From: Candidatus Doudnabacteria bacterium
GTDB lineage: Bacteria > Patescibacteriota > Doudnabacteria > UBA920 > 2-01-FULL-46-14
NCBI GenBank assembly: GCA_041497195.1
Contig: JBGQGB010000001.1
Span: 143,672 to 207,671 of the forward strand
Length of the DNA: 64,000 nucleotides
Reading direction: 5' to 3'
The notes under the pieces are model-generated. The model had not been told where the DNA came from, ran no database searches, and was given only the letters and a program-made list of their open reading frames with translations. Position 1 is the first letter of the stretch. Each line of letters opens with the position of its first letter. Shown in pieces: positions 965 to 33,846 of this stretch. The position numbers and the translations under genes were made by a program.

Positions 965-1648
965 TCAGCCAAGTTCTCCATCTTCGTATTTTTTTCCAAT
1001 TTTTCTAACGACAAGATAAAGTATGATCAACAGCACAACCACGGCCACGGTCACCAAGGCTGTGTAATCGAGATATCTATTAAGCTGGGCATAAGCCTGA
1101 CCAAAATAAAACCCAATCAGCATCAGGATCAGCGCTTTCGGCAGCGTCGCTAAAAAATTATACCAAATAAACTTCCAAAAAGGAACTTTGGCCATGCCGG
1201 CCGCCACCAGAATTACTCCGCCAACCGCATGAGTGAGTTTCCCAAAAAAAAGGCTCTTGCCCCCGTGCTTTTCAAAATATGCTTCCATGAGCGCCAACCG
1301 CTCGGCAGTAATGCCGACGTAGCGACCCCAGCGTTCAATAAATCGATTTCGTCCCCAGCGTCCTATCGAATAATATAAACTATCCCCGACCAAATCGCCA
1401 AACAGCAAAACGAGATAGGCCAGAAAAAAGTTGAGATAGCCGAGGGAGACGAGAAACCCTCCGATAATCGTCACAATCGGTCCCTCCACGACGACAATGG
1501 GAAACAGCAATAAATATTTGTAGTGGATGAGCCAAGTTATTATCGTAGGCAAATCAAAATGCATATCTCGTATTATACACTTTTGCCGCAAAAAAGTAAG
1601 TAAAAACCGTCTCAGGGCAAGGGACCCAAACGTAAAAAAACTAATCAA
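965..1648 (-). CDS. DedA/TVP38 (SNARE-associated) family membrane protein
   Basis: 227 aa and polytopic. It carries the DedA core motifs (GPIVTIIGGFLVSLGYLNFFLAY..FGDLVGDSLYYSIGRWGR, FFGKLTHAVGGVILVAAGMAKVPFWKFIWYN). Confidence 0.8.
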   Translation of the reverse strand: MISFFTFGSLALRRFLLTFLRQKCIIRDMHFDLPTIITWLIHYKYLLLFPIVVVEGPIVTIIGGFLVSLGYLNFFLAYLVLLFGDLVGDSLYYSIGRWGRNRFIERWGRYVGITAERLALMEAYFEKHGGKSLFFGKLTHAVGGVILVAAGMAKVPFWKFIWYNFLATLPKALILMLIGFYFGQAYAQLNRYLDYTALVTVAVVVLLIILYLVVRKIGKKYEDGELG

Positions 1649-1651
1649 AAA

Positions 1652-2155
1652 TTAAGCATTCATGTCGTCTGTGGATACAAGCTCCCTAGATTTTCGAATG
1701 TAATAGTGGATAATAAGTGCGCTCGCAAGGAGAACGGTGCTCGAAAAAAAATTAGGAAGTGCTGTCCAGGAGCTAAGGCCACAACTCTCGACAACTCCGC
1801 TATCACCAACGGCAATGGTGCAAGGTCGAGCAAGATTGAGCACCGATATAGCATAGGCTAGGATAGAAAGGGCTATAAATACCCACGACCAAATCTTTTG
1901 GATCTTTATCCGCAGTAATGCAACCAAGCTAAACGTGATGCCTAGAAACCCAATTAAATATACAACAAATGGCAAATAGGCATTATAGAATATCATAAAA
2001 ACTGGCACAGGCAAGCCTGTAATGCGAAGGATAAGTAATGCGAAAATCCCAAAAGGGACAATTAAAAAACCGACTGGATTCGCCACTATTAATATCATGT
2101 AAAACACTGTAGCAATCCACCAGACCTTAAGAGAAGTTTTGAATAATTGCTTCAT
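1652..2155 (-). CDS. hypothetical polytopic membrane protein
   Basis: 167-aa ORF with 4-5 hydrophobic helices and no recognisable motif. It is packed tightly (3-nt gap) against the dedA-like gene. Confidence 0.45.
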   Translation of the reverse strand: MKQLFKTSLKVWWIATVFYMILIVANPVGFLIVPFGIFALLILRITGLPVPVFMIFYNAYLPFVVYLIGFLGITFSLVALLRIKIQKIWSWVFIALSILAYAISVLNLARPCTIAVGDSGVVESCGLSSWTALPNFFSSTVLLASALIIHYYIRKSRELVSTDDMNA

Positions 2156-2278: not shown

Positions 2279-2365
2279 TGGTGCCCGAGGAGAGACTCGA
2301 ACTCTCATGGTCTTGCGACCGCAGGATTTTGAGTCCTGTGCGTCTGCCAGTTCCGCCACTCGGGC
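2279..2365 (-). tRNA. tRNA-Leu (anticodon CAA), 87 nt, type II with long variable arm
   Basis: The reverse complement reads GCCCGAGTGGCGGAACTGGCAGACGCACAGGACTCAAAATCCTGCGGTCGCAAGACCATGAGAGTTCGAGTCTCTCCTCGGGCACCA. It has a 7-bp acceptor stem, an anticodon stem-loop CAGGA-CTCAAAA-TCCTG (anticodon CAA), a long variable arm, a T-loop GTTCGAGTC and an encoded CCA. Confidence 0.9.
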
Positions 2366-2447: not shown

Positions 2448-3761
2448 TCAGGGTTGGATGGTGAACGTATTATCGCTCTGATCGCTGACAGAGCCTCCGC
2501 CACCAGGCGAGCCCTGAGAAAGAACAACGATTTTGTAGTTCGTCGCCGCAGACACATTGTCAGGCACCCAAGTGTAGCTGCTATCCAAAATATTCGTGGT
2601 GATGCTCTGATTGATACCCGCCCGGCTGAAATAGATATCGACTTTACCCTGGGATTGATCTGGATACCAGTTTCGTTTCCAGGTAATCTTGATCGGCTGT
2701 AAATGCGCAAACGTTTCTTCACCATTTGGGGTCAACACAGTGACAGCCGGTCCGAAAGCCGACGTATCATTACCAACATTGACCTGATAAGTACTACTCG
2801 AAGTGCCGCCCTTTCCGTCGCTCACGCTTACTATGATGGAATATTGGCCCAAAAAGCTCCACGCATGACTGACAGTCGAGCTTGTTCCGGACGAAGCAAG
2901 TGTGGTGTATTTAGGCGTGGCATCCCCCCAGTCGACGATATAAGTGAGTCTGTCATTGTCCGGATCAGCTGCCGTGATTGTAAAATTTTGCGTGGTTGCG
3001 GGAAACGTGGCGATCACTCCGCTGATCACGGGTGCCGAGGGTGGCTGGTTGGATGATGTGCCAGTACCGTAGCCGGGTGTTGGAGAGGGCGTCGGAGTCG
3101 GAGCAGGTTGCGGAACCTGCACGGGTGGACTACTGGGCTGCCCTTCGATTGGCAAAGCCAGGTCTGCCGTGTTTGTGGCAACGATATTTTGCAGCTGGTA
3201 CCGAGCTGCATAAAAAGCCTCAAGCGACGGGATGCCCCGCCTGCCCGCATCTGTGATCAAATAAACCGTGCCGCTGTCATTTATGAGCGTGCCGGGCAGA
3301 TGCGCGGAACTTGCCGAGTCTATAGTCGCGGTCGGCAGAAGTCTCGAAAGAGTTGTCCCTGGCTCTCGCAGGACACTGGCAAAAGAATAACCCAAACCGA
3401 GAAAAACATCGGCCGAGGAAAACGGATGTTTCGTTCCATCAGAAATCAAGTATACAGTCGGGGTATGGTCTTTGACCAAAGCGCCGTCGCGGTAGGACAT
3501 CAGCGGCCCCTCCGGCAGAGCCAAGTCTGCGGTAGTCGCCGGCGTGGCGTCACCGAACAGGTACCCGTTGGAAAAATAAATAGTCCTCGATGGAAAGCCG
3601 CGACGCTGCCCGCCGCTAATCAAAAATATGGCCCCGTTTGGAGCGCGCACCACTGCCCCTTCGTTGCCTGTTCCTAGGGCAATCGCGGGAAGCGAAAACA
3701 ATGTACCAAGTAGAGCTCCGGCTAAAACAGCAGAATCAAAAAATTGAATTTTTTTTCTCAT
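2448..3761 (-). CDS. secreted cell-surface protein with three N-terminal repeats, a Pro/Thr linker and a PKD-like domain
   Basis: 437 aa with an N-terminal signal peptide (MRKKIQFFDSAVLAGALLGTLFSLPAIALG). Three similar roughly 60-aa repeats are present (AIFLISGGQRRGFP / VYLISDGTKHPF / VYLITDAGRRGIP). A PQPAPTPTPSPTP linker follows, then a PKD-like beta domain (TYIVDWGDATP...SHAWSFLGQYSIIVSVSDGKGGTSSSTYQVNV) and a Ser/Gly-rich C-terminus. Confidence 0.65.
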   Translation of the reverse strand: MRKKIQFFDSAVLAGALLGTLFSLPAIALGTGNEGAVVRAPNGAIFLISGGQRRGFPSRTIYFSNGYLFGDATPATTADLALPEGPLMSYRDGALVKDHTPTVYLISDGTKHPFSSADVFLGLGYSFASVLREPGTTLSRLLPTATIDSASSAHLPGTLINDSGTVYLITDAGRRGIPSLEAFYAARYQLQNIVATNTADLALPIEGQPSSPPVQVPQPAPTPTPSPTPGYGTGTSSNQPPSAPVISGVIATFPATTQNFTITAADPDNDRLTYIVDWGDATPKYTTLASSGTSSTVSHAWSFLGQYSIIVSVSDGKGGTSSSTYQVNVGNDTSAFGPAVTVLTPNGEETFAHLQPIKITWKRNWYPDQSQGKVDIYFSRAGINQSITTNILDSSYTWVPDNVSAATNYKIVVLSQGSPGGGGSVSDQSDNTFTIQP

Positions 3762-3831: not shown

Positions 3832-6339
3832 TCAATTCACCAGCTGCGGATCAATTTCCACCACCTGACCCCGCTTGATTTCGCCAGAAATAAGTCCTTT
3901 GGCAATGTAATTTTCAATCCGATCCTGGATGTAACGACGCAAAGGCCGGGCCCCAAATTCGGCACTATACCCTCCTCTCGCCACTGTAGCCGCCAGCTCG
4001 GGAGTGATATTGATTTTTATGTCTTTTTGAGCCAAACGCACGTTCAGTTCTCGCAGCAAAAGCATGGCTACTTGCGTCAATTCCTCTTCCGTCAAGGGGC
4101 GGAAAATGATGACCGCATCAAAACGGTTCAAAAACTCGGGCCGGAATATTCCTTGCCGCTGGATGCTATCCAAAAGCTGATCGCGCGCCTCAGCCGGATT
4201 TTGGCCGCTCTTGACCATTTGCCGAATCTCCTCGGCTCCCGCGTTTGACGTGGCAATGATCATGGTATTGACGAAACTGACGCTGCGACCCAAAAAATCC
4301 GTCAAGCGGCCTTCATCCAAAACTTGCAAAAACAAATCCAAAACCTTGGAATGGGCTTTTTCCAATTCATCAAATAAGATCAAAGAGAAAGGGTTCTGCA
4401 GCACGGCTTCGGTCAGAAGGCCGCCCGCATTTGTATCAGCATCGCCAATCAAACGGTTGATGCTGTGGACCTCCTGAAACTCGGACATATCAAACCTGAT
4501 AATCCTTTGCTCGCTACCAAAATACACAGCGGCCAAGGCCTTGGTCGTTTCCGTCTTCCCGACCCCGGTCGGACCCATGAAAAGAAAACTACCAATCGGG
4601 TGTTTTTCCGAACGAATCCCCGACCTGGCGCGGCGAAGGGCATTGGCCAGCTGTTCAATCGCTTCCTGCTGCCCGACGATGCGCTCGTGCAGAATTGTCT
4701 CCAAATTCATGAGTGTATCTTTTTCTGCAGCAGCGACCTTTTCCACCGGAACCTTCGTCCTCTGGCTAACGACTTTTCTGACGTGCTCCGCAGAAACAAT
4801 CTTTTCGCCCAATTTGGTGACCACAAAGACAGCAGTTTCTTCCAAAATTTCCAGGGATTTTTCAGGATTAGGCAAAGTTTGAATGAGCTTTTCACTCAAT
4901 GCGACTATCTCATGCAACGATTCATGGGTAAACCACAAACCAAAACGCTTCTCCGCCGGTACGGCAGCGTCTTGTAAAATGAGCAAAGTTTCGGCCGCCG
5001 ACGGCTCGCTTAGTTCCAGCTTGCTCATCAAGCGTTCAAGTTGAGGGTTTTTCCCGATTGTCGCTTGGTAACCTTGAAACGTCGTGATACCCATGACCCT
5101 CAGGCCTGACTGCAAAAACGGAAGGAGGGCTTCAGCCGCGTTGACTCGCCCCGCCTCTGGATGCGGATCAAGGAAAGCATCAAAATTGTTGATTACCAGG
5201 ATCACATTTTCTGCCGAGAGCGCCTCGCTGAACAGAGCCCGAATATGTTCCAAAACTTCATTGAGTGACTTGGTCCCGCCAATCACAGCCGCCGAGTCAA
5301 TCTGCAATAACCGCTTGTAGCGAAGCGGACCCAAAACGTCTCCACGGTTGAGTTTCGCTGCAAAAGCGCGCAGCAAAGTGTGCCGGCCGACTCCCGGGGC
5401 CCCGACTAAAACGACATTTCCGAAACCCGCCGAGCGCACCAGCGCGCGTTGCAAAATCTCCACTTGATTATTGCGTCCGTAGAGATGTTCGGGTGGTTTG
5501 TGAATCCGAACCAGGGCGGTCAAATCCGTCGCCACTCTATCCAAATTTATGGTATACCCGGCTGCCCAGTCCTTGCCGATGCCTTTGGTATCCAATAAAT
5601 TTTCTCGGGTCCAAAACTCACCACGCTGCATTTTCGAAACATCCAATCGCCGGCGCCAGTCAGCGACTTCTCGCAAATCTTTTTCCTCGATCTCAAATTC
5701 AAACATCAGTTTCTGAAAAATTTTATCCAATTCGAAAACCGCCACCAGCAGGTCCGCTTCGGTAATCTGCAGGTTGTTACCGGCCAAGACCTTTTGCCAG
5801 GCCGTCAGCAAAACTTCGCGCAGAGACAAAGCGGCCGCTGGCGGGTATTGTTCCTTTACTTTTCTGCCCAATTCCTCTGGCGGGAGGTCGAGCCGGTGCC
5901 AAACCCATAGAAAACTTTCGTGTCGCAATAGGTAATCCCAAAACTGGGCTAACAAAAAATTTTCTCCGCGCGCTCCCACGTCTATCAAACGAGCGGCTGA
6001 AAAGCTCAAAATCCGGCCATACGACTCATGCTCCCAGGATTTTTGAAGTTCCTCGAAATTGGCCGGATGCTCATTTTGTAAAAAAACTAGAAAAAGCCAA
6101 TAAAGTCCCAGTAGCAGAAAAAACCCAAAGAAAACCTCGGCTGTGCCAAAGGCAAACCATAGAATCGAAGACTTGGTGTCCCCAAGCAAAATAGTTGTAA
6201 AAAAACCAGTTAGACTGATCACTCCGGCAAGCCACAGAAAAACTCCAGTCCGTGATCTGGACAAATGTCTTTCCAGGATCAGGGCCGACCTGTAACCGGA
6301 CTGTTCAATATAGATATCTTTTCCTGATAAAATTTTCAT
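3832..6339 (-). CDS. membrane-anchored Clp/Hsp100-family double AAA+ ATPase, ClpB-like, with degenerate D1 and canonical D2
   Basis: D2 is canonical: [15 protein letters not shown] (Walker A), LILFDELEKAH (Walker B) and GARPLRRYI (sensor 2). D1 reads GAPGVGRHTLL with ILVINNFDAF, so the Walker A Lys is Arg and the Walker B DE is NN. Two N-terminal TM helices are present (VFLWLAGVISLTGFFTTILL, FGFFLLLGLYWLFLVFL). The chosen start is the ATG at 6339, which overlaps the stop of the upstream ORF (ATGA); the longest ORF would extend to 6525. No ClpB middle domain and no ClpP-binding IG[FL] loop were seen. Confidence 0.8.
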   Translation of the reverse strand: MKILSGKDIYIEQSGYRSALILERHLSRSRTGVFLWLAGVISLTGFFTTILLGDTKSSILWFAFGTAEVFFGFFLLLGLYWLFLVFLQNEHPANFEELQKSWEHESYGRILSFSAARLIDVGARGENFLLAQFWDYLLRHESFLWVWHRLDLPPEELGRKVKEQYPPAAALSLREVLLTAWQKVLAGNNLQITEADLLVAVFELDKIFQKLMFEFEIEEKDLREVADWRRRLDVSKMQRGEFWTRENLLDTKGIGKDWAAGYTINLDRVATDLTALVRIHKPPEHLYGRNNQVEILQRALVRSAGFGNVVLVGAPGVGRHTLLRAFAAKLNRGDVLGPLRYKRLLQIDSAAVIGGTKSLNEVLEHIRALFSEALSAENVILVINNFDAFLDPHPEAGRVNAAEALLPFLQSGLRVMGITTFQGYQATIGKNPQLERLMSKLELSEPSAAETLLILQDAAVPAEKRFGLWFTHESLHEIVALSEKLIQTLPNPEKSLEILEETAVFVVTKLGEKIVSAEHVRKVVSQRTKVPVEKVAAAEKDTLMNLETILHERIVGQQEAIEQLANALRRARSGIRSEKHPIGSFLFMGPTGVGKTETTKALAAVYFGSEQRIIRFDMSEFQEVHSINRLIGDADTNAGGLLTEAVLQNPFSLILFDELEKAHSKVLDLFLQVLDEGRLTDFLGRSVSFVNTMIIATSNAGAEEIRQMVKSGQNPAEARDQLLDSIQRQGIFRPEFLNRFDAVIIFRPLTEEELTQVAMLLLRELNVRLAQKDIKINITPELAATVARGGYSAEFGARPLRRYIQDRIENYIAKGLISGEIKRGQVVEIDPQLVN

Positions 6340-6728
6340 ATTCTCAAAGTCGGCGTGATGAATCCGGCAAAAAACAGCCCCACAATCAAAATCGGCAAAA
6401 CGTACCACAAAATAAAAGCGGCTAATGTCAAAAGTGTGAAAAAAATAAAAACAACCAAGCCCGCCGCCATCACTACGAGCCGCAAGACGGCCCCGATGAA
6501 ACGCGAAATAAAATTCCAGCCCCACACGTGGAGAAACCGCGCTAGGTCAAATCCTCGACCATAAGAGCTGACGTCCTTGTGCCAGGGCGCAAACAAGCGA
6601 GGCACAAAATAGCCGATGGAAAAAAATCTCCAGGTCCAAGTCAAAAAATTCCGTCCCGTCCGCAAAACCTCCACCGGGGCTTGCCAGAAAAACCAACGGA
6701 TAAACAAAAGGAAAATACTGTCGGTCAT
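6336..6728 (-). CDS. small polytopic membrane protein, translationally coupled to the Clp-like ATPase
   Basis: The ORF runs 6336..6824. The likely start is the internal Met (MTDSIFLLF) at 6728, to avoid overlapping the PAP2 gene. It has 3-4 hydrophobic helices, and its stop TGA overlaps the ATG of the Clp-like gene. Confidence 0.45.
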   Translation of the reverse strand: MTDSIFLLFIRWFFWQAPVEVLRTGRNFLTWTWRFFSIGYFVPRLFAPWHKDVSSYGRGFDLARFLHVWGWNFISRFIGAVLRLVVMAAGLVVFIFFTLLTLAAFILWYVLPILIVGLFFAGFITPTLRI

Positions 6729-7281: not shown

Positions 7282-7821
7282 TTATTTTTGTTTCAAACTC
7301 ATCGTTTTTAAAATCTTGTAAACTTGACCTTGATCGTCTTTCAACCCTACTCCGATTGTTTCCAACTTAAAAGTTGTGCTCAAAGCGGATTGATTCCGCG
7401 ACATTTGTAGCGCAAATCCGGGCTCTTTGAATCTGGTTAAAGTGACATGAGGGCTATAAGGAAGCCTCGGGGGTCTGATTTTCTTGGCGTAACGTTTTGT
7501 TTCTGTCCCTAGGCGTTTACGAAATTTTTCTAATTCTCTTCTCGGTTTTATATTTAAGACGAGGAAGCCGCCTTTGTCGCTCGAATAACCGTCTGTACGG
7601 ACGGGAAAAGCTTTCACTCCTTCCAAAAAAACAGTCAGTTTGCTCAAAACGAAATTCAATTTATTCTTATTAACCGTTGCCCCAAACAAAGTTATGTGGG
7701 GGGAAAATTTCTTGCTATCAACAATAAACCGATGGGGATGAAGTCGCGCAACTCGCTGGGCATTCTTAGCCACCTTTGAATTTATGTCTGGCGGCAACAA
7801 AATAAAAAAATTTACTTCCAT
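7282..7821 (-). CDS. 2H phosphoesterase superfamily protein (RNA 2',3'-cyclic phosphodiesterase ThpR/LigT-like)
   Basis: Two H-x-T-L motifs are present (PHITLFG and PHVTLTRF), about 90 aa apart, as in LigT/ThpR. Confidence 0.7.
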   Translation of the reverse strand: MEVNFFILLPPDINSKVAKNAQRVARLHPHRFIVDSKKFSPHITLFGATVNKNKLNFVLSKLTVFLEGVKAFPVRTDGYSSDKGGFLVLNIKPRRELEKFRKRLGTETKRYAKKIRPPRLPYSPHVTLTRFKEPGFALQMSRNQSALSTTFKLETIGVGLKDDQGQVYKILKTMSLKQK

Positions 7822-7826
7822 AACAT

Positions 7827-9143
7827 CTAATCAATCCCCGGCACGGGGTATTTACTGGCAAAGGCTTTCACCTCACGTTGAATTTTTTGAACTAACGGGT
7901 GCGCGACCAACTTTTTCGCATAATCTTTCACTGCGGCTACCCGCTTTTCCTTTTCTTCAGGCAATGCGGTTTTGGCAAACTCTTTGATAATCTCAGCAAT
8001 CCATTTCCCGATTTTTTTCATTTCTTCTTCTTTCATCCCGCGCGAAGTGAGGGCAGGCGTACCTAATCGAATCCCGGACGGGTAATACGGCGGGGACGGA
8101 TCATTGGGAATCGGGTTTTTATTGACTGTAATGTTTGCTGCCTCCAGGGCTTTTTCTACAAAAATTCCTCTCCCCGTACCGAACGGGCGCAAGTCCACCA
8201 ACAACAAATGATTATCAGTCCCGTTGGAAATAAGCTTTATTCCCTCTTCCATCAAAGTTCCAGCCAGAGTTTTGGCGTTTTTGACTATTTGCTGAGCGTA
8301 AGTGCGGAACTCCGGAGTTCCCGCTTCCGCAAGCGCCACTGCAACTCCCGCAATCGTGTGCTCGTGCGGGCCCCCCTGCATCCCGGGAAATACAGCCTTG
8401 TCTACTCTTTCTTTGTATTCCTCGCGGCAAAAAATCATGGCAGCGCGCGGACCACGCAAAGTTTTGTGCGTCGTGGTAGTAATCACATCCATAAAAGGAA
8501 ACGGCGACGGGTGGACGCCGCCAATAATCAAACCAGAAATATGCGAAATGTCAGCCATGGATAGGGCCCCGACTTCTTGAGCTATTTCGCTCATTTTTTG
8601 GAAATCAATCAAGCGCGGATAAGCCGTGAAACCGGACACGATCAATTTTGGCTGTTCCTGTTTAGCAAGCTTAAGGATCGAGTCATAATCGAGCATCTCA
8701 GTATCAGGATCGACTTCATAGTGGACGAATTTAAAAGCCCGGCCGGACAAACTCACTGGATCTCCGTGCGTGAGGTGACCGCCGTGCGCCAGGCGTAGGG
8801 ACATGATCTTATCCCCCAATTCCAGGAGCCCCAGATACACGGCAATATTGGCCGGACTGCCCGAATACGGCTGCACGTTGACGTGATACTCGCTAGCGCC
8901 GAAAACTTCTTGAGCGCGCCTTTGCGTCAACCGTTCGATTTCGTCAATGTGAACATTGCCTCCGTAATAACGCCGCCCGGGATAACCCTCAGCGTACTTG
9001 TCATTGAGGATGCTGCCCATCGCTTCGAGGACTGCAGCGGATGCGTAATTCTCGGAAGGGATCATTTCCAAGCCTTCCTTTTGCCGGATTTTTTCTTGCT
9101 CAATGATTTTGTAGACTTCCGGATCCTGTTTTTGCAGATTCAT
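7827..9143 (-). CDS. glyA: serine hydroxymethyltransferase
   Basis: 438 aa, starting MNLQKQDPEVYKIIEQEKIRQKEGLEMIPSENYASAAVLEAMGS, which matches the SHMT N-terminus. The PLP-Lys region reads TTTTHKTLRGPR. Confidence 0.95.
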   Translation of the reverse strand: MNLQKQDPEVYKIIEQEKIRQKEGLEMIPSENYASAAVLEAMGSILNDKYAEGYPGRRYYGGNVHIDEIERLTQRRAQEVFGASEYHVNVQPYSGSPANIAVYLGLLELGDKIMSLRLAHGGHLTHGDPVSLSGRAFKFVHYEVDPDTEMLDYDSILKLAKQEQPKLIVSGFTAYPRLIDFQKMSEIAQEVGALSMADISHISGLIIGGVHPSPFPFMDVITTTTHKTLRGPRAAMIFCREEYKERVDKAVFPGMQGGPHEHTIAGVAVALAEAGTPEFRTYAQQIVKNAKTLAGTLMEEGIKLISNGTDNHLLLVDLRPFGTGRGIFVEKALEAANITVNKNPIPNDPSPPYYPSGIRLGTPALTSRGMKEEEMKKIGKWIAEIIKEFAKTALPEEKEKRVAAVKDYAKKLVAHPLVQKIQREVKAFASKYPVPGID

Positions 9144-11648: not shown

Positions 11649-14600
11649 CTACGTACCAACCACAAAATTAATAATCTTGCCTGGGACATAGATTACCTTG
11701 CGTACCGTCTTGCCGTCAAGGTATTTGGCCACATTCTCTTCTTTCAAAGCTTGCAGCTTTGCAGCATCTTCCCCCGCATTCACTGGAAGCTCTATCGTAG
11801 CGCGATGCTTGCCGTTGACCTGGACTGCAACAGATACCTTTTCTTCTTTGATGAGCTCCGGGTCATACTTTGGCCATTGTTCGAGTTGAATGGATTTTTT
11901 ATGGCCAAGTTCAGCCCAAAGCTCTTCAGTCAGGTGAGGTGCAAAAGGAAAAAGCAGTTTTAAAAAAATTTTCCAATCATTCTTACTTATGTCGTGGTAC
12001 TGATAATATTCCATAAAAGCAGCAACAGCAGTATTAAACTTAAACGCCTGAATATCCATTGTAATCTTCTTTATGAGCTTATGAATTTTAGGAGAATCGG
12101 GATGGCTGTTCTCCTGTGTATAAAAATTAGATACTCGACTCAAAAATCTGAATACACCTTTTATCCCATCAATATTCCACGGCTTTGCGTCCTCCAGAGG
12201 CCCCATAAACATTTCATACATCCGCATTGAGTCCGCGCCAAATTCCTCAACAATATCGTCAGGATTGATGACATTACCGCGCGATTTGCTCATCTTCTGC
12301 CCGTCAGGACCTAGAACCAGCCCTTGATTTCGCAGTTTCAAAAATGGCTCGTCAAAGTTGAGATATCCCAAATCGCGCAAAACTTTGCAGAAAAACCGGG
12401 CATACATCAGATGCAGAACCGCGTGCTCTGCCCCGCCAACATACACATCCACCGGACACCATTTGGCGATTTCTTTGGCTGACGCAAACTCTTTTGCGTT
12501 GTTCGGATCAGTGTAGCGCAGCCAATACCAGGACGAATCAACAAAAGTGTCCATGGTATCAGTCTCCCGACGAGCTGCCTTGCCGCAATTTGGACACTTC
12601 ACCTTATTGAAAGATTTTGATCGTGCTAGTGGTGACTCTCCAGTCGGCTGAAAATCCACGTCTGTTGGAAGTGTGACAGGGAGGTCTTTTTCCGGCACTG
12701 CCTGCATGCCGCAATCGTGGCAATAAATGATGGGGATGGGAGCTCCCCAATACCGCTGCCGGCTGATCAACCAATCGCGAAGTTTGAATTGAACGGCTCT
12801 ACTACCGATTTCATTTTTTTCTAACCATTCAATAACTTTATTCTTCGCCTCACGGACTGTTAGGCCATTCAAAAAATCAGAATTTATTACCTTAGCCTCC
12901 CAGTCATCATGAACAAATGGGGTATGCTCTATATATTTAAAACCCCCGGCCTTTATCTCTTTAAAGACTTTTTTCTTTGCTTCCTCGGTATTAAATTCAA
13001 ATGCATGGAACCACCTATTAAAATAGCGTGTGGCACTATACCGCGGGTAATCCTCTATGCTAACCTTTTCCTTAGTAATTATTTCTTGCAATTTGATCAT
13101 CTTCGCCTGCTGCTCTGTGCTCCCAATAAGCTCAATACTAATTCCATCATTTACTTTTCTAATATTTATTCCTTGCTGGGTAGCAAACTCCCAATCTCTA
13201 AAATCATGTGCAGGCACGGCCATGATGGCGCCAGTGCCATAATTCATCAAAACATAATCAGCTATCCAGACTGGGATTTTTTCTTTGGTTGCTGGATTGA
13301 TCGCCCACACCCCTTTGAGCTCGACTCCGATTTTGTCTTTTTCCAGAGCTGTTCTTTGGAGTTCTGTTTTACTCTTTGCCTGCTCGATATATTTTTCGAC
13401 CTCTTGAAAATTGGAAATTGAAAATTGCAAATTCTTCACCTGCGGGTTCTCTGGAGCCAAAACCATATAGGTTGCTCCAAATATTGTATCGGGTCGAGTG
13501 GTAAAAACTTTGATGGAATTTTTGACCGCATTCAAAACTTCCAGCTCCTCTTTCCCCTTCACATGAGGCTTCGAGGCTCTGAATTTTACCAAACTGCCTC
13601 CTAGTTTTTCTTTCAAGGCCAAAGAAGCTGATTCTGGCACGATCTGATCGCTTTCATCCTGCAAAATGACGATTTGCTTCGCGTTCTTCTTTATGGCTTC
13701 AAAATCAAAATTCCAGTTCAGCTCCTTTTCAAACGACCGGGCCTTGTCCAAAAATTTTGGGGTTAGAAAACTCCCAACCAAGACTAGCTTGGAAATAGGC
13801 TGTTTCAATTTTTCCAGCATTTTGAGAGCCATCACGCCACCCAGACTGTGCCCGATCAAAACCGAACCTTCATCCAGGCGGGATTTCTGCAAAAGATCGG
13901 CGATTATTTCATTTTCCGGATATTTTTCCGTTCTTTTGTATACTATTGTTTGCGCTCTGGCTCCAGTGGATTGTAAACTTTTGGTTAACCAGGGATAAAA
14001 ATTATCTTGTTCGCTACTAGTCCAGCCCGGCAGGACAATATAGTTGGATTTTATGGCAAGCGGAAACTCAATCTCCGCTCCTTCGCTTCTTCCGATCCAA
14101 TTCCGTTGCATGGTCTTAATCGGCTCCGGCCAGTCTATCTTCTCTAAGCCGTCCAGCAACTCATCCGCATAGTCAGTAATTTTATAAAACCACTGCGATA
14201 GAAGCTTCTGCACAACCTGCGTGCCGCAACGCTCGCAGCGACCAGCGATGACTTGCTCATTCGCCAAAACTGTCTGGTCTTTGGGGCACCAGTTCACATA
14301 AGCTTCTTTGCGATACGCCAGACCCTTCTCGTAAAATTTCAGGAACAGCCACTGCGTCCATTTATAATATTCCGGATCCGAAGTATTTACTTCCCGGTCC
14401 CAGTCGTAGGACAGCCCCAGGGACTGAATCTGCTGTCTGAATCTTTTGATATTGGCCGCGGTTGATTTGGCCGGGTGAATTTTTTCTTTGATCGCATAAT
14501 TCTCGGCCGGCAACCCAAAAGCATCCCAACCCATCGGGTGCAGGACGTCATAGCCGTTCATGCGCAGATACCGTGAATAGATGTCAGTCGCGGTATAACC

Positions 14601-14762
14601 TTCGGGATGGCCGACGTGCAGCCCCGCGCCCGAGGGATAAGGAAACATATCCAGGATATATTTCTTTTTCTTCCCCGGATTTTTCGGCGTGGCGTAGAGC
14701 TTCTGCTCTGCCCATTTCTTCTGCCACTTTTTTTCAATTTTGCTGTGATTGTACTTGGTCAT
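11649..14762 (-). CDS. leuS: leucyl-tRNA synthetase with an extra inserted serine-hydrolase-like domain
   Basis: 1037 aa. It carries HMGH-like (PYPSGAGLHVGHPEGY) and KMSKS (QKMSKSRGNV) motifs, a CERCGTQV zinc region and TTRPDTIFGATY at the start of the editing domain. A roughly 170-aa insertion lies between the Zn-1 region and TTRPDT (see the separate feature). Confidence 0.95.
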   Translation of the reverse strand: MTKYNHSKIEKKWQKKWAEQKLYATPKNPGKKKKYILDMFPYPSGAGLHVGHPEGYTATDIYSRYLRMNGYDVLHPMGWDAFGLPAENYAIKEKIHPAKSTAANIKRFRQQIQSLGLSYDWDREVNTSDPEYYKWTQWLFLKFYEKGLAYRKEAYVNWCPKDQTVLANEQVIAGRCERCGTQVVQKLLSQWFYKITDYADELLDGLEKIDWPEPIKTMQRNWIGRSEGAEIEFPLAIKSNYIVLPGWTSSEQDNFYPWLTKSLQSTGARAQTIVYKRTEKYPENEIIADLLQKSRLDEGSVLIGHSLGGVMALKMLEKLKQPISKLVLVGSFLTPKFLDKARSFEKELNWNFDFEAIKKNAKQIVILQDESDQIVPESASLALKEKLGGSLVKFRASKPHVKGKEELEVLNAVKNSIKVFTTRPDTIFGATYMVLAPENPQVKNLQFSISNFQEVEKYIEQAKSKTELQRTALEKDKIGVELKGVWAINPATKEKIPVWIADYVLMNYGTGAIMAVPAHDFRDWEFATQQGINIRKVNDGISIELIGSTEQQAKMIKLQEIITKEKVSIEDYPRYSATRYFNRWFHAFEFNTEEAKKKVFKEIKAGGFKYIEHTPFVHDDWEAKVINSDFLNGLTVREAKNKVIEWLEKNEIGSRAVQFKLRDWLISRQRYWGAPIPIIYCHDCGMQAVPEKDLPVTLPTDVDFQPTGESPLARSKSFNKVKCPNCGKAARRETDTMDTFVDSSWYWLRYTDPNNAKEFASAKEIAKWCPVDVYVGGAEHAVLHLMYARFFCKVLRDLGYLNFDEPFLKLRNQGLVLGPDGQKMSKSRGNVINPDDIVEEFGADSMRMYEMFMGPLEDAKPWNIDGIKGVFRFLSRVSNFYTQENSHPDSPKIHKLIKKITMDIQAFKFNTAVAAFMEYYQYHDISKNDWKIFLKLLFPFAPHLTEELWAELGHKKSIQLEQWPKYDPELIKEEKVSVAVQVNGKHRATIELPVNAGEDAAKLQALKEENVAKYLDGKTVRKVIYVPGKIINFVVGT
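13535..14045 (-). other. RBBP9/YdeN-like (PF06821-type) alpha/beta serine-hydrolase domain inserted in-frame within leuS
   Basis: LeuS residues about 240-410 read YIVLPGWTSSEQDNFYPWLTKSLQ...VLIGHSLGGVMALKML...VILQDESDQIVP...RASKPH. They contain a GxSxG nucleophile elbow (GHSLGG) and candidate Asp and His triad residues. In E. coli LeuS only about 20 residues separate the equivalent flanks (NWIGRSEG ... TTRPDT). Confidence 0.6.
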
Positions 14763-31191: not shown

Positions 31192-33846
31192 ATGATTCCT
31201 CTCGATAAATTCACCCAAAAAGCTCAGGAGGCCATCGCGGCTTCCCAGACGATTGCGTCCGAGCACGAGCATCAGCAAGTCGACACCATCCACCTTCTCT
31301 ACGCCCTCATCCAGCAAGAAGGTGGCGTCGTGGGGTCGCTTTTGGAAAAAATGAAAATTGATTCGCGGCTCCTGGAAATGCAGATCGAAAAAATCCTGCA
31401 GGCGCTGCCGCAGACATCCGTTTTTCCCTCAGGCTTGGGGCAAATTTACGTCACCCGTAATCTCAATGAAGTGCTCTCACAATCAATGAAAGAAGCGGTA
31501 AAGCTGAAGGACGAGTACGTTTCCACTGAGCATTTGTTTCTCGCGATCCTGGAACGGGGCGGACAGACCAAGCGCCTCCTCGAACAATTCGGGCTCGGTA
31601 CGGTTGACGTGCTGGAGAGCCTCAAGGATATCCGCGGCTCCGAAAGGGTCACCAACCCTGAGCCGGAACAAACATATCAAGCTCTGGAGAAATATACTCT
31701 CAACCTCACTGATCTGGCGCGCAAAAACAAACTTGACCCAGTGATCGGCAGGGACCAGGAAATCCGACGCGTCATGCAAGTCCTCTCCCGCCGCACCAAG
31801 AACAACCCCGTGCTCATAGGCGAACCAGGCGTGGGCAAAACCGCGATCGCTGAAGGACTGGCCCAGCGGATAGTGGCGGGCGACGTGCCGGAGAGTCTCA
31901 AAAATAAAGTCCTGCTGGCCCTGGATTTGGGTTCGCTATTGGCTGGCGCAAAATTTAGAGGCGAATTTGAGCAGCGCATGAAAAGCGTTTTGCGGGAAAT
32001 CGAGCGATCGAGCGGCAAAATCATTTTATTTGTCGACGAACTTCATACCGTGGTCGGCGCAGGTGCGGCCGAAGGGGGCCTGGATGCGTCCAACATGCTC
32101 AAACCAATGCTGGCGCGAGGCCAACTGCATGCCATCGGGGCCACGACCCTGAAAGAGTATCAAAAATATATTGAAAAAGACGCGGCTCTCGAGCGGCGCT
32201 TCCAGCCGGTCATGGTCACCGAGCCGACAATCGAAGACACTATCGCGATTTTGCGTGGGATCAAAGAAAAATACGAGGTCCATCACGGCGTCAAAATCAC
32301 GGATGAGGCCATAGTGTCCGCGGCTGAACTATCCGCCCGCTATATCACTGACCGATTTTTACCCGACAAAGCCATTGACCTCATCGATGAAGCGGGTTCC
32401 AATTTGCGTCTGGAGATTGACAGTATGCCTGAGGATCTTGATCTTTTGAACCGGCGCATCCGCAAACTGGAAATTGAAAAACAAGCGCTGAAACAGGACG
32501 ACTCCGAGCGAGCTTCGGAAAACCTTCCCAAAATTGAAAAAGAACTGGCCGAGTCCCAGGAACAAGCTCGCACGCTGCGCCTGCATTGGGAAGCGGAAAA
32601 AGACATCATTACCAAAATCCGGGAGAACAAAAGCCGCATTGATGAGCTGAAGATGCAGGCCGAATCCGCGGAACGGGAAGGAGACCTCAACAAAGTTGCG
32701 GAAATCCGCTACGGCGAATTGCCGCGCCTGACCAAAGAAATTGCCGAAAAAGAACAGCGCCTGATCAAAATCCAGAGCAAGCACAAAATCCTGCGCGAAA
32801 AAGTCACCGAGGAAGACATCGCTCAGGTCGTGGCGCGCTGGACCGGCGTACCGGTGTTTAAAATGCTCGAGTCGGAATCACAAAAATTGAGCCACATGGA
32901 AACAGAACTCAAGAAACGCATCGTCGGCCAGGACGAAGCCATCACGGCCATCAGCAACGCCATCCGCCGCTCCCGCGCGGGGATTGCCGAAGAGCGCCGT
33001 CCAATCGGGTCTTTCATTTTCCTGGGCCCGACAGGCGTCGGTAAAACGGAAACAGCCAAAGCTTTGGCCGAGTTTCTGTTCAACGACGAAAAGGCACTGG
33101 TGCAGATGGACATGTCCGAATACAGCGAGCGCCATTCGATTGCCAAATTCATCGGCTCCCCGCCCGGCTATGTCGGCTACGAAGAGGGTGGCCAACTGAC
33201 GGAAATCATCAGGCGGCGCCCCTACAGCGTCGTGCTGTTTGACGAGATTGAAAAAGCGCATCCGGAAATATTCAATATTCTCTTGCAAATCCTCGACGAA
33301 GGTCAGCTCACGGACTCAAAAGGACGAACAGTAAATTTCAAAAACGCGATCATCATCATGACTTCGAACTTGGGCTCCGAGATGATCCGCAGCCAAGCCA
33401 TCGGTTTTGAGGCCGAACAAAAAAATCAAAAAACCGAAGTATCCGAAAACGAAATGCGGGACCACGTGCTAGAGATTTTGAACAAGCACTTCCGGCCGGA
33501 GTTCCTCAACCGCGTCGATGAAATTATTATTTTCCACCCTTTGGCCAAAAGACAGCTGGAAAAAATCGTAGAACTGCAGCTGGAGCTAATTCAAAAGCGA
33601 GTGGCAGAACGAGGAGTGGTACTCAAATTCAAACCCGCCGCCAAAAAACTTCTCGCTGACAAAGGGTTTGATCCCGTATACGGCGCCCGGCCCCTCAAAC
33701 GCGCTCTGCAAAGAGAAATCCTGGACAAGCTAGCACTGCTGATGATCAAAGGCGAAATTGAAAAAGGCCAGAGTCTGGAAATCGATACGAAAAAAGATGA
33801 AATAGTTCTGCATCCTGTCCACGAGGCAGAACCGGCGAAAAAGTAA
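31192..33846 (+). CDS. clpB: ATP-dependent chaperone ClpB (canonical)
   Basis: 884 aa with Clp_N repeats. D1 reads [18 protein letters not shown] and [10 protein letters not shown] long coiled-coil middle domain is present. D2 reads [26 protein letters not shown] and GARPLKR. Confidence 0.95.

Follow-up and report, generated by a model that had tools for sequence, protein, structure and literature searches.

A predicted membrane-anchored Clp/Hsp100 ATPase with a degenerate first ring, paired with a small membrane protein in Patescibacteria

Clp/Hsp100 proteins are soluble threading machines that act either as disaggregases or as partners of a protease; in ClpB, the middle domain (M-domain) is the element coupling the ATPase to DnaK. 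Among other AAA+ ATPases, the D2 ring of NSF and the D1 ring of Pex1/Pex6 are catalytically silent and are kept as assembly scaffolds while the other ring works, and Bcs1, which is anchored N-terminally, moves its cargo without classical threading. Torsin is a Clp/Hsp100-related, membrane-associated ATPase that has no aromatic pore loops and depends on membrane cofactors (PMC5425593). In the PTEX system, a ClpB-like Hsp100 (HSP101) works on the membrane pore EXP2 (mentioned in PMC8896661). In the present work we analyzed a stretch of 64,000 nucleotides from a Candidatus Doudnabacteria bacterium (assembly GCA_041497195.1, contig JBGQGB010000001.1, positions 143,672 to 207,671; hereafter, the window), which harbors, in addition to a canonical clpB, a second Hsp100 gene whose start overlaps the end of a gene for a small membrane protein (hereafter, the partner). 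According to the sequence data presented below, this Hsp100 branch departs from the textbook picture in that it is predicted to be membrane-anchored and to carry one silent ring, has lost the threading aromatics and is tied to a membrane protein not described so far.

The protein shares with ClpA and ClpC the order N-domain, D1, D2 and D2-small, without the long M-domain of ClpB, whereas it differs from both in having a membrane hairpin and a degenerate D1 and in lacking the ClpP-docking loop and the pore aromatics. Its D2 is homologous to that of the window ClpB and the D2-small domain is present in both; however, it is set apart from the ClpB/Hsp104 type by its predicted anchoring, its dead D1 and the absence of both the M-domain and the pore tyrosines. 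The likeness to Torsin with LAP1/LULL1 concerns the N-terminal hydrophobic membrane association, the missing aromatic pore loop and the dedicated membrane partner. Torsin, however, is single-ringed and luminal and receives its Arg finger from the cofactor, whereas here there are two tiers, predicted to be cytoplasmic, with an invariant Arg finger in D2, and the partner, unlike the Torsin cofactors, is small, helical and without an AAA-like fold. The resemblance is taken as a functional analogy, with homology at the level of the shared superfamily. In FtsH and Msp1/ATAD1, too, an N-terminal anchor sets an AAA+ ring at the membrane surface, but these proteins belong to the classical AAA clade and have a single ring with aromatic pore loops (plus, in FtsH, a protease domain). 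Bcs1 and PTEX offer the coupling of an AAA+ ring to a membrane conduit, which in our case is only proposed; the relationship exists at the AAA+ level only, and HSP101 is soluble, with canonical loops. NSF and Pex1/Pex6 come from other clades, and substrates continue to be threaded by the rings that remain active. The closest functional analogies are with Torsin and its membrane cofactors and, to a lesser degree, with Bcs1 or PTEX, but the protein belongs to none of these families.

The membrane-anchored Hsp100 failed every NCBIfam Hsp100 equivalog, among them those for ClpB (TIGR03346, 451.5 bits against a cut-off of 1232.1) and ClpA (TIGR02639, 427.4 bits against 993.15), the ClpA model aligning to it as a single stretch from residue 162 to 830. 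Its best sequence matches in the PDB were ClpC and ClpB (E about 1e-112; 4e-112 for ClpC), and the same two proteins were the best Foldseek matches of its AlphaFold2 (AF2) monomer model (predicted local distance difference test, pLDDT, 89.1), with a TM-score of about 0.75-0.8 over D1 and D2. These data point to a class-I (two-tier) member of the Clp/Hsp100 group that fails the defining tests of both ClpB and ClpA/ClpC. The window ClpB, which was used for comparison only, passes the ClpB equivalog (Table 1), as expected from the preliminary description of this DNA, where it had been singled out as the canonical copy; it carries the Walker A/B pair and the pore-loop aromatic of each ring, together with the M-domain, and has no N-terminal hydrophobic segment.

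The D1 domain was aligned with that of the window ClpB through BLASTP and with ClpC and ClpB from the PDB through HMMER. Homology was evident (28% identity over 240 residues and E 1e-19 with the window ClpB; 88.8 bits with ClpC D1), Pfam giving over the same region only weak, generic AAA matches. The alignments agree with the preliminary reading of a degenerate Walker A and of a Walker B changed from Asp-Glu to Asn-Asn (Table 1), and no canonical motif appears in D1. In the core clade Walker A follows the pattern G.PG.G[RK]HT, with Arg in 31 of 35 members and His in 34 of 35, and more distant members read GSSRRS, GVGMKN or GSGRKS. The first acidic position of Walker B is occupied across the family by N, S, E, T, Q, K or D and the second by D or N, the first Arg-finger residue is variable, and the pore motif K[YFW]RG[ED] was found in none of the 36 family members. 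Since the Lys and Thr of Walker A, both acidic residues of Walker B and the Arg fingers are lost, D1 is predicted to be catalytically degenerate and unable to hydrolyze ATP. The domain is still constrained (mean pairwise identity 0.61; 26 of 164 columns invariant), and the conservation of the Arg-His pair in the P-loop suggests that the pocket keeps some role. Thus, the earlier idea of a dead D1 stands as far as catalysis is concerned, while the inability to bind ATP, also claimed, was overstated.

The D2 domain is the most conserved region of the protein (mean pairwise identity 0.74; 65 of 202 columns invariant). All of its catalytic motifs are invariant in the motif table of the 40 family sequences, sensor-1 (TSN) is intact, Pfam AAA_2 matches residues 581-742 with 163.6 bits (cut-off 27), and the identity with the window ClpB is 42% over 357 residues (BLASTP). 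D2 had been described as fully canonical, which proved wrong: the ATPase motifs are all kept, but GYVG is deleted from the pore-1 loop throughout the family, so that the loop reads GDADTNAGG and the Tyr is gone, according to BLASTP, HMMER and the family alignment alike. The pattern G[YFW][VIT]G was found in none of 36 family members, compared to 82 of 83 canonical Hsp100s used as a control. The remaining loop is acidic in the core clade, and its sequence varies in distant members and in fusions.

Two further elements of known Hsp100s are missing, as had been noticed from the sequence at the outset. The coiled-coil M-domain is absent, about 136 alignment columns being gapped relative to the window ClpB. 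Moreover, a gap of seven residues lies opposite the VGF loop of ClpC in the HMMER alignment with the PDB, and a regular-expression scan for [ILVM]G[FL] between TSN and FRPEF, the region of the ClpP-docking loop, retrieved no match in 42 family sequences. Because the M-domain and the ClpP-docking loop are both absent, the protein is predicted to be neither a ClpB-type disaggregase nor a partner of ClpP.

The two N-terminal transmembrane (TM) helices that had been proposed to precede a Clp_N-like region are supported by hydropathy, AF2 and hhalign (Table 1). Both helices were modeled with a pLDDT above 90; they are joined by a loop of six residues (GDTKSS), and the 31 residues at the N-terminus include six Lys/Arg. 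The six basic residues before TM1, together with the short connecting loop, suggest an N-in/C-in hairpin, with the ATPase domains after TM2 in the cytoplasm. In nearly all full-length family members, hydrophobic segments corresponding to both helices occur within the first 90 residues or so, at a mean pairwise identity of 0.31; the hairpin is kept in character only. The N-domain that follows gave no direct match to Pfam Clp_N, and its divergent relationship emerged when the family N-domain profile was compared through hhalign with the Clp_N region of canonical Hsp100s. A family-specific motif, in which W258, T263, L266 and D267 vary little or not at all, distant members and fusions included, lies between the N-domain and D1. 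Residues 242-261 of this motif are an insertion relative to ClpB, and its terminal YTxNLD aligns with the linker between the ClpB N-domain and D1; in the AF2 model the motif sits in a low-confidence loop (pLDDT 51-66).

The search for related proteins retrieved a clade of about 35 full-length relatives (47-69% identity) as well as more distant proteins; those that are named, few in number, come from metagenome-assembled genomes of Doudnabacteria or "Saccharibacteria". A clade of membrane-anchored, D1-degenerate Hsp100s standing beside the small protein does exist, and the window pair has all five features of the family, i.e., the hairpin, the degenerate D1 P-loop, a D2 without GYVG, the GIGKDW..GYT.NLD motif and the small gene upstream. 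In the literature searched, whose coverage is incomplete, neither a membrane-anchored bacterial Hsp100 nor the partner family was found to be described, an absence that is not proof.

A distant membrane-anchored relative, P0037 (872 aa, locus L007, 6001..8619), has canonical D1 Walker motifs (GAPGSGKTS and IEEIH) and a Phe in its shortened D2 loop (GSFDNPG), and adjoins the genes for MreC, MreD, PBP2 and DprA; possibly it represents a version of this lineage with D1 still active. The possibility that its N-terminus is a fused small protein was not accepted, the BLASTP similarity being weak and falling in a hydrophobic region (E 5e-4, one comparison) and hhalign giving a probability of 17%; a later multiple alignment again places this N-terminus beside the small protein.

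As regards the limits of the two genes, the longest open reading frame (ORF) over the Hsp100 gene extends from 3832 to 6525 on the minus strand and would code for 897 residues from a GTG. The ATG at 6339, rather than this upstream GTG, is the conserved start: in the family alignment the Hsp100 homologs begin at the same Met and share the YLEQSGY motif, and an in-frame stop lies two to nine codons 5' of the ATG in 7 of 14 homologous loci, because of which the 62-residue extension is not conserved. The hydrophobic N-terminus, then, is not upstream non-coding sequence. The ATG overlaps the stop codon of the 130-residue gene as ATGA, as previously noted, an arrangement which is predicted to couple the translation of the two genes. 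In the matching public record (GCA_041492065.1, contig JBGPWG010000007.1) the Hsp100 is annotated with 897 residues from the GTG, and for this reason the 130-residue ORF was left uncalled. The PAP2 gene of that record is called with 113 residues, its orthologs having 168-172.

The partner did not match any Pfam, NCBIfam or PADLOC model, nor did a Pfam scan of 78 members of its family at E<=1 reveal any recurring family. Its orthologs at the same position are 49-56% identical, about half of the conserved residues being encoded by different (synonymous) codons, and the exact 130-residue protein is called in other public records (P0122). Such comparisons show that both the Hsp100 N-terminus and the small ORF are conserved at the protein level, and they appear to be translated. 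A profile search of 1.84 billion representatives yielded 1453 clusters at E<=1e-3 and 1008 at E<=1e-10. All the named members belong to Patescibacteria (Doudnabacteria, Portnoybacteria, Colwellbacteria, "Parcubacteria group" and "Patescibacteria group"); the two-gene unit thus seems, so far, to occur only in this group of ultra-small bacteria, for which the name Candidate Phyla Radiation (CPR) is also in use.

The orthologs share the pattern FFSIGYF.PR.FAPWHRD.SSYGRGFD...WN.ISR.IGA.LR, and Y56, G57, R58, G59 and F60 are nearly invariant across the 78 sequences. The AF2 model of the partner (pLDDT 94.3) consists of a helix (residues 5-35), a short helix, the conserved loop (45-61) and a continuous long helix (62-129), the last 45 residues or so of which are hydrophobic. 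Inside this hydrophobic stretch, the family column corresponding to residue 94 is occupied by Glu in most members (consensus GL..E) and by Phe in the window protein; this membrane-embedded acidic residue may be relevant to function.

Table 1. Position of the features of the Hsp100-partner locus and of the window ClpB (positions refer to the window).
Feature	Position	Strand	Basis and remarks
PAP2-type (undecaprenyl-diphosphatase-like) gene, 172 aa	6763..7281	minus	Pfam PAP2, 63.9 bits
Partner membrane protein gene, 130 aa	6336..6728	minus	ORF translation; uncharacterized family
Most conserved partner segment PRLFAPWHKDVSSYGRGFD, aa 43-61	6546..6602	minus	W49 invariant; non-helical loop in AF2
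Hydrophobic C-terminal stretch of the partner, aa 84-127	6348..6479	minus	Kyte-Doolittle up to 2.76; one long or two membrane segments
ATGA stop/start overlap (partner stop, Hsp100 ATG)	6336..6339	minus	Sequence; A6339-T-G-A6336
Hsp100 gene, 835 aa	3832..6339 (stop codon included)	minus	ORF and translation; ATG at 6339
N-terminal motif YIEQSGY (family consensus YLEQSGY), cytoplasmic, before TM1	6292..6312	minus	Alignment; S14 nearly invariant
TM helix 1, aa 32-52	6184..6246	minus	Kyte-Doolittle 2.01 (19-residue window); AF2 helix 28-51
TM helix 2, aa 59-87	6079..6165	minus	Kyte-Doolittle up to 2.57; AF2 helix 58-88
Divergent Clp_N-like N-domain, aa ~95-232	5644..6057	minus	hhalign probability 94.9%, E 4.5e-8
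Family-specific motif FWxRENLLxTKGIGKDWxGGYTxNLD, aa 242-267, between N-domain and D1	5539..5616	minus	Alignment
D1 Walker A, degenerate, GAPGVGRHT	5377..5403	minus	Opposite GEPGVGKTA of ClpB/ClpC; Lys to Arg, Thr to His
D1 pore-1 loop position GGTKSLNEVL, without aromatic	5251..5280	minus	KFRGEFE reads KSLNEVL
D1 Walker B, degenerate, VILVINNFDA	5176..5205	minus	Aligned to ClpB/ClpC; Asp-Glu to Asn-Asn
D1 Arg-finger position QLERLMS (versus ALERRFQ)	5023..5043	minus	Motif table; second Arg lost
Junction at the ClpB M-domain site, EETAVFV, aa 500-506; M-domain absent	4822..4842	minus	Family alignment
D2 Walker A, canonical, GPTGVGKTE	4549..4575	minus	Invariant in all 40 family sequences
D2 pore-1 loop RLIGDADTNAGGLLTE, shortened, without aromatic	4408..4455	minus	4-residue deletion of GYVG
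D2 Walker B, canonical, LILFDELEKAH	4351..4383	minus	D657, E658 invariant
Segment after sensor-1, site of the ClpA/ClpC/ClpX ClpP-docking [ILV]G[FL] loop; shortened	4171..4242	minus	Alignment
D2 Arg finger FLNRFD	4117..4134	minus	N738, R739, D741 invariant
D2 sensor-2 GARPLRR	3934..3954	minus	G796, A797, R798, R802 invariant
ClpB_D2-small C-terminal domain, aa 749-829	3853..4095	minus	Pfam PF10431, 77.6 bits (cut-off 21.9)
Canonical ClpB of the same genome, comparison only	31192..33846	plus	NCBIfam TIGR03346, 1276.9 against cut-off 1232.1

The analysis of the gene organization revealed the small gene upstream of an Hsp100 of this type (794-849 aa) in all 16 loci examined, directly so in the window and in loci L003-L006, L008, L009/L010, L011, L012-L016, L019 and L020. 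The two genes overlap at the stop/start or abut in L003-L006, L008, L009, L011, L013, L014, L016, L019 and L020, and are separated by a gap or an intervening ORF in L012, L015 and L018. Locus L018 is the sole exception to direct adjacency among the loci examined; it carries between the two genes a hydrophobic ORF of 158 residues without family match (7383..7859). A scan of a genome collection with a five-sequence alignment, whose search patterns were narrow, returned six loci. Furthermore, at least six natural fusions were found in which the small protein is N-terminal to the Hsp100 (L017, an 824-residue protein from a Portnoybacteria genome; P0259; P0365; P0372; P0268/P0386; and P0357/P0389). 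They were found in independent assemblies, and in every one of them D1 is degenerate and the D2 loop non-aromatic. The two genes are one conserved unit, with obligate pairing among the loci examined, and the repeated fusions are read as a sign of a very tight pairing.

Beyond the pair, the neighborhood changes with the lineage (genes for ribosomal proteins L10/L12, a toxin-antitoxin pair, BipA, PBP1, or the division and cell wall (dcw) cluster). The PAP2 gene had been reported immediately upstream in the preliminary description, where it is indeed found, 34 nt from the 130-residue gene, its matches to NCBIfam undecaprenyl-diphosphatase models being weak and under the model cut-offs. PAP2 and/or BacA genes occupy the upstream position in L003-L006, L008 and L015 and are absent from L009, L011 and L017-L020. 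Their presence is confined to the Doudnabacteria-like clade, where they fall inside a long gene order running from leucyl-tRNA synthetase (LeuRS) through serine hydroxymethyltransferase (SHMT) to the unit. Since they are missing elsewhere while the pair persists, PAP2 and BacA were considered as neighborhood; they were rejected as a third core component and do not belong to the conserved unit.

Taken as a whole, the sequence features are compatible with the following model, to which we give roughly an even chance: the Hsp100 and its partner would form a membrane complex that carries out ATP-driven remodeling or gating, with D1 as a non-catalytic scaffold and D2 as the only motor. The hairpin would hold the Hsp100 at the cytoplasmic face of the membrane, most likely as a hexamer, an assumption based on the conservation of the D2-small domain, of the D2 Arg finger and of sensor-2. 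The scaffold role of D1 would lie in assembly or regulation, its pocket perhaps being statically occupied, and D2, where every catalytic residue is kept, would be the sole motor. The partner would bind the ATPase at a ratio of about 1:1 (6:6 being the stoichiometry assumed), and the ATP-driven movements of the D2 ring would reach the small membrane protein by way of the N-domain and the hairpin; the partner would thus be the element acted upon, the outcome being the remodeling or gating of a membrane assembly. Processive threading of polypeptides is unlikely, because neither pore-1 loop retains its aromatic residue and that of D2 is, in addition, shorter and variable; the mechanistic logic would be closer to that of Torsin with its membrane cofactors, or of Bcs1, than to that of ClpB, FtsH or Msp1. 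Several points weigh against this model. Leu residues remain near both pore loops (SLNEV and GGLLT), and the loss of the pore aromatics does not strictly exclude translocation; some AAA+ proteins translocate substrates with unconventional loops. D2, unlike Torsin, has an Arg finger of its own and can do without the partner in completing the active site. The fold search with the partner gave only generic helical hairpins, and the fusions disagree on its topology, two passing straight from the hydrophobic tail to the cytoplasmic domain and four having an extra hydrophobic segment.

The idea to which the preliminary description had been inclined, i.e., a membrane-associated unfoldase or extractase other than the usual disaggregase, remains in its first part, as the protein is predicted to be membrane-anchored and not a disaggregase; the unfoldase or extractase function is weakened, because the elements that grip and thread a substrate are missing from the pores of D1 and D2. 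Such an anchored hexamer would pull proteins of the membrane, or close to it, through its central channel as FtsH and Msp1 do, with the partner as adaptor or delivery subunit. A membrane-anchored AAA+ protein with an intact D2 motor, a Clp_N-like domain of the kind that binds substrates or adaptors and the Leu residues near both pore-loop positions would suit this function, and all the characterized bacterial class-I Hsp100s are, to our knowledge, threading machines. We nonetheless hold it to be unlikely, although it is the main alternative, since a D2 loop that is four residues shorter, acidic in the core clade and unconserved outside it, together with the loss of both pore-1 aromatics, is not expected of a substrate-gripping element, and neither a ClpP-docking loop nor a fused protease domain is present. 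A different possibility is that the complex handles envelope lipids or lipid carriers, working with the adjacent PAP2/BacA enzymes or on lipid-linked precursors or scavenged lipids. In every Doudnabacteria-like locus PAP2 and/or BacA stand directly upstream, two non-homologous enzymes of the same function alternating at one position; L011 adjoins a CDP-alcohol phosphatidyltransferase gene and the dcw cluster, and L007 the MreCD-PBP2 genes; the window includes a DedA/VTT protein, with a glycosyltransferase nearby; and the conserved loop of the partner, rich in Arg, His and aromatic residues, may recall many membrane-interface phosphate-binding sites. However, PAP2 and BacA belong to a long conserved gene order and are gone from the distant lineages that keep the pair, and envelope genes are common neighbors in small genomes, so that this explanation appears improbable.

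A purely structural role, in which both rings of a pseudo-ATPase would be functionally inert, could be reconciled with the degenerate D1 and the lost pore loops, and plant Clp relatives of the SMAX1/D53 type act without threading; yet the catalytic motifs of D2 do not vary among the 40 family sequences and no region of the protein is better conserved than D2, which argues for selection for ATP hydrolysis and makes an inert scaffold very improbable. Even less credible is a mobile anti-phage or conflict system built on a ClpB-like ATPase. The partial PADLOC matches of D2 to DolB and PDC-M37B (E 2e-32 to 8e-31) span only the generic AAA_2 module, the partner is unmatched, and the locus stands in conserved housekeeping synteny without mobile-element features; the defense reading was rejected because of this restriction of the DolB matches. 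Practically no weight is left to an annotation artifact, i.e., an untranslated N-terminus or small ORF, or a decaying ClpB duplicate, as might be imagined from the public record that calls the 897-residue protein and omits the small ORF; the comparative data refute it, with an intact ORF, protein-level conservation with synonymous changes, nearby in-frame stops and about 1000 or more clusters. The remodeling or gating model can also be given a more specific form. Patescibacteria have tiny genomes and depend on their hosts for lipids and other building blocks, and they might possess, across the whole lineage, a membrane machine made from an Hsp100 that no longer threads polypeptides, in which D2 drives a ring of hairpin and partner helices that gates a conduit or handles lipids or lipid-linked precursors; we put this version forward as a speculation, and a rather doubtful one.

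The conserved membrane proteome of Patescibacteria, a very large radiation, is still largely uncharacterized. If the Hsp100 does not thread, Torsin-like behavior would reach into the bacteria and offer a simpler system in which to study the mechanism; if it does, a new system of membrane-protein extraction with unconventional pore loops would be at hand. A gating or lipid-handling machine would represent a bacterial counterpart of the Torsin/Bcs1/PTEX logic and would add a functional class to those known among Clp ATPases. Either way, the labels "ClpC" or "Clp protease ATP-binding subunit" used in public records are misleading, and the small gene is sometimes missed.

Some other features of the window were observed. 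Directly downstream of the Hsp100 gene, at 2448..3761 on the minus strand, lies a gene coding for a 437-residue protein whose N-terminal part includes a hydrophobic segment and which contains a PKD/Big_9 domain; it is also found in L001-L003 and not in more distant loci. It is separated by a tRNA-Leu(CAA) gene (2279..2365) from two further genes of the minus strand, which code for a DedA/VTT membrane protein (965..1648; Pfam, 63.7 bits) and for a multi-span protein of 167 residues without family match (1652..2155). A family 4 glycosyltransferase (GT4) gene, seen only in L001, lies past the window start and, with PAP2 and DedA/VTT, gives the region a local envelope theme.

The LeuRS encoded at 11649..14762 on the minus strand (1037 aa) contains an inserted serine-hydrolase/alpha-beta-hydrolase domain (residues 242-396) with a GHSLGG nucleophile elbow, just before the editing domain (residues 410-538); the insert scores 32.5 bits with Pfam Ser_hydrolase (cut-off 22) and 32.7 bits with Abhydrolase_1, and the same architecture is annotated in L001 and L002. 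Finally, the window ClpB has the tripeptide IGF at residues ~730-745, at the position of the ClpP-docking loop of ClpA/ClpC, in what we take to be an insertion of about 11 residues relative to Escherichia coli ClpB; this protein might thus be a ClpB with a natural capacity for docking on ClpP, or the tripeptide may be there by coincidence.

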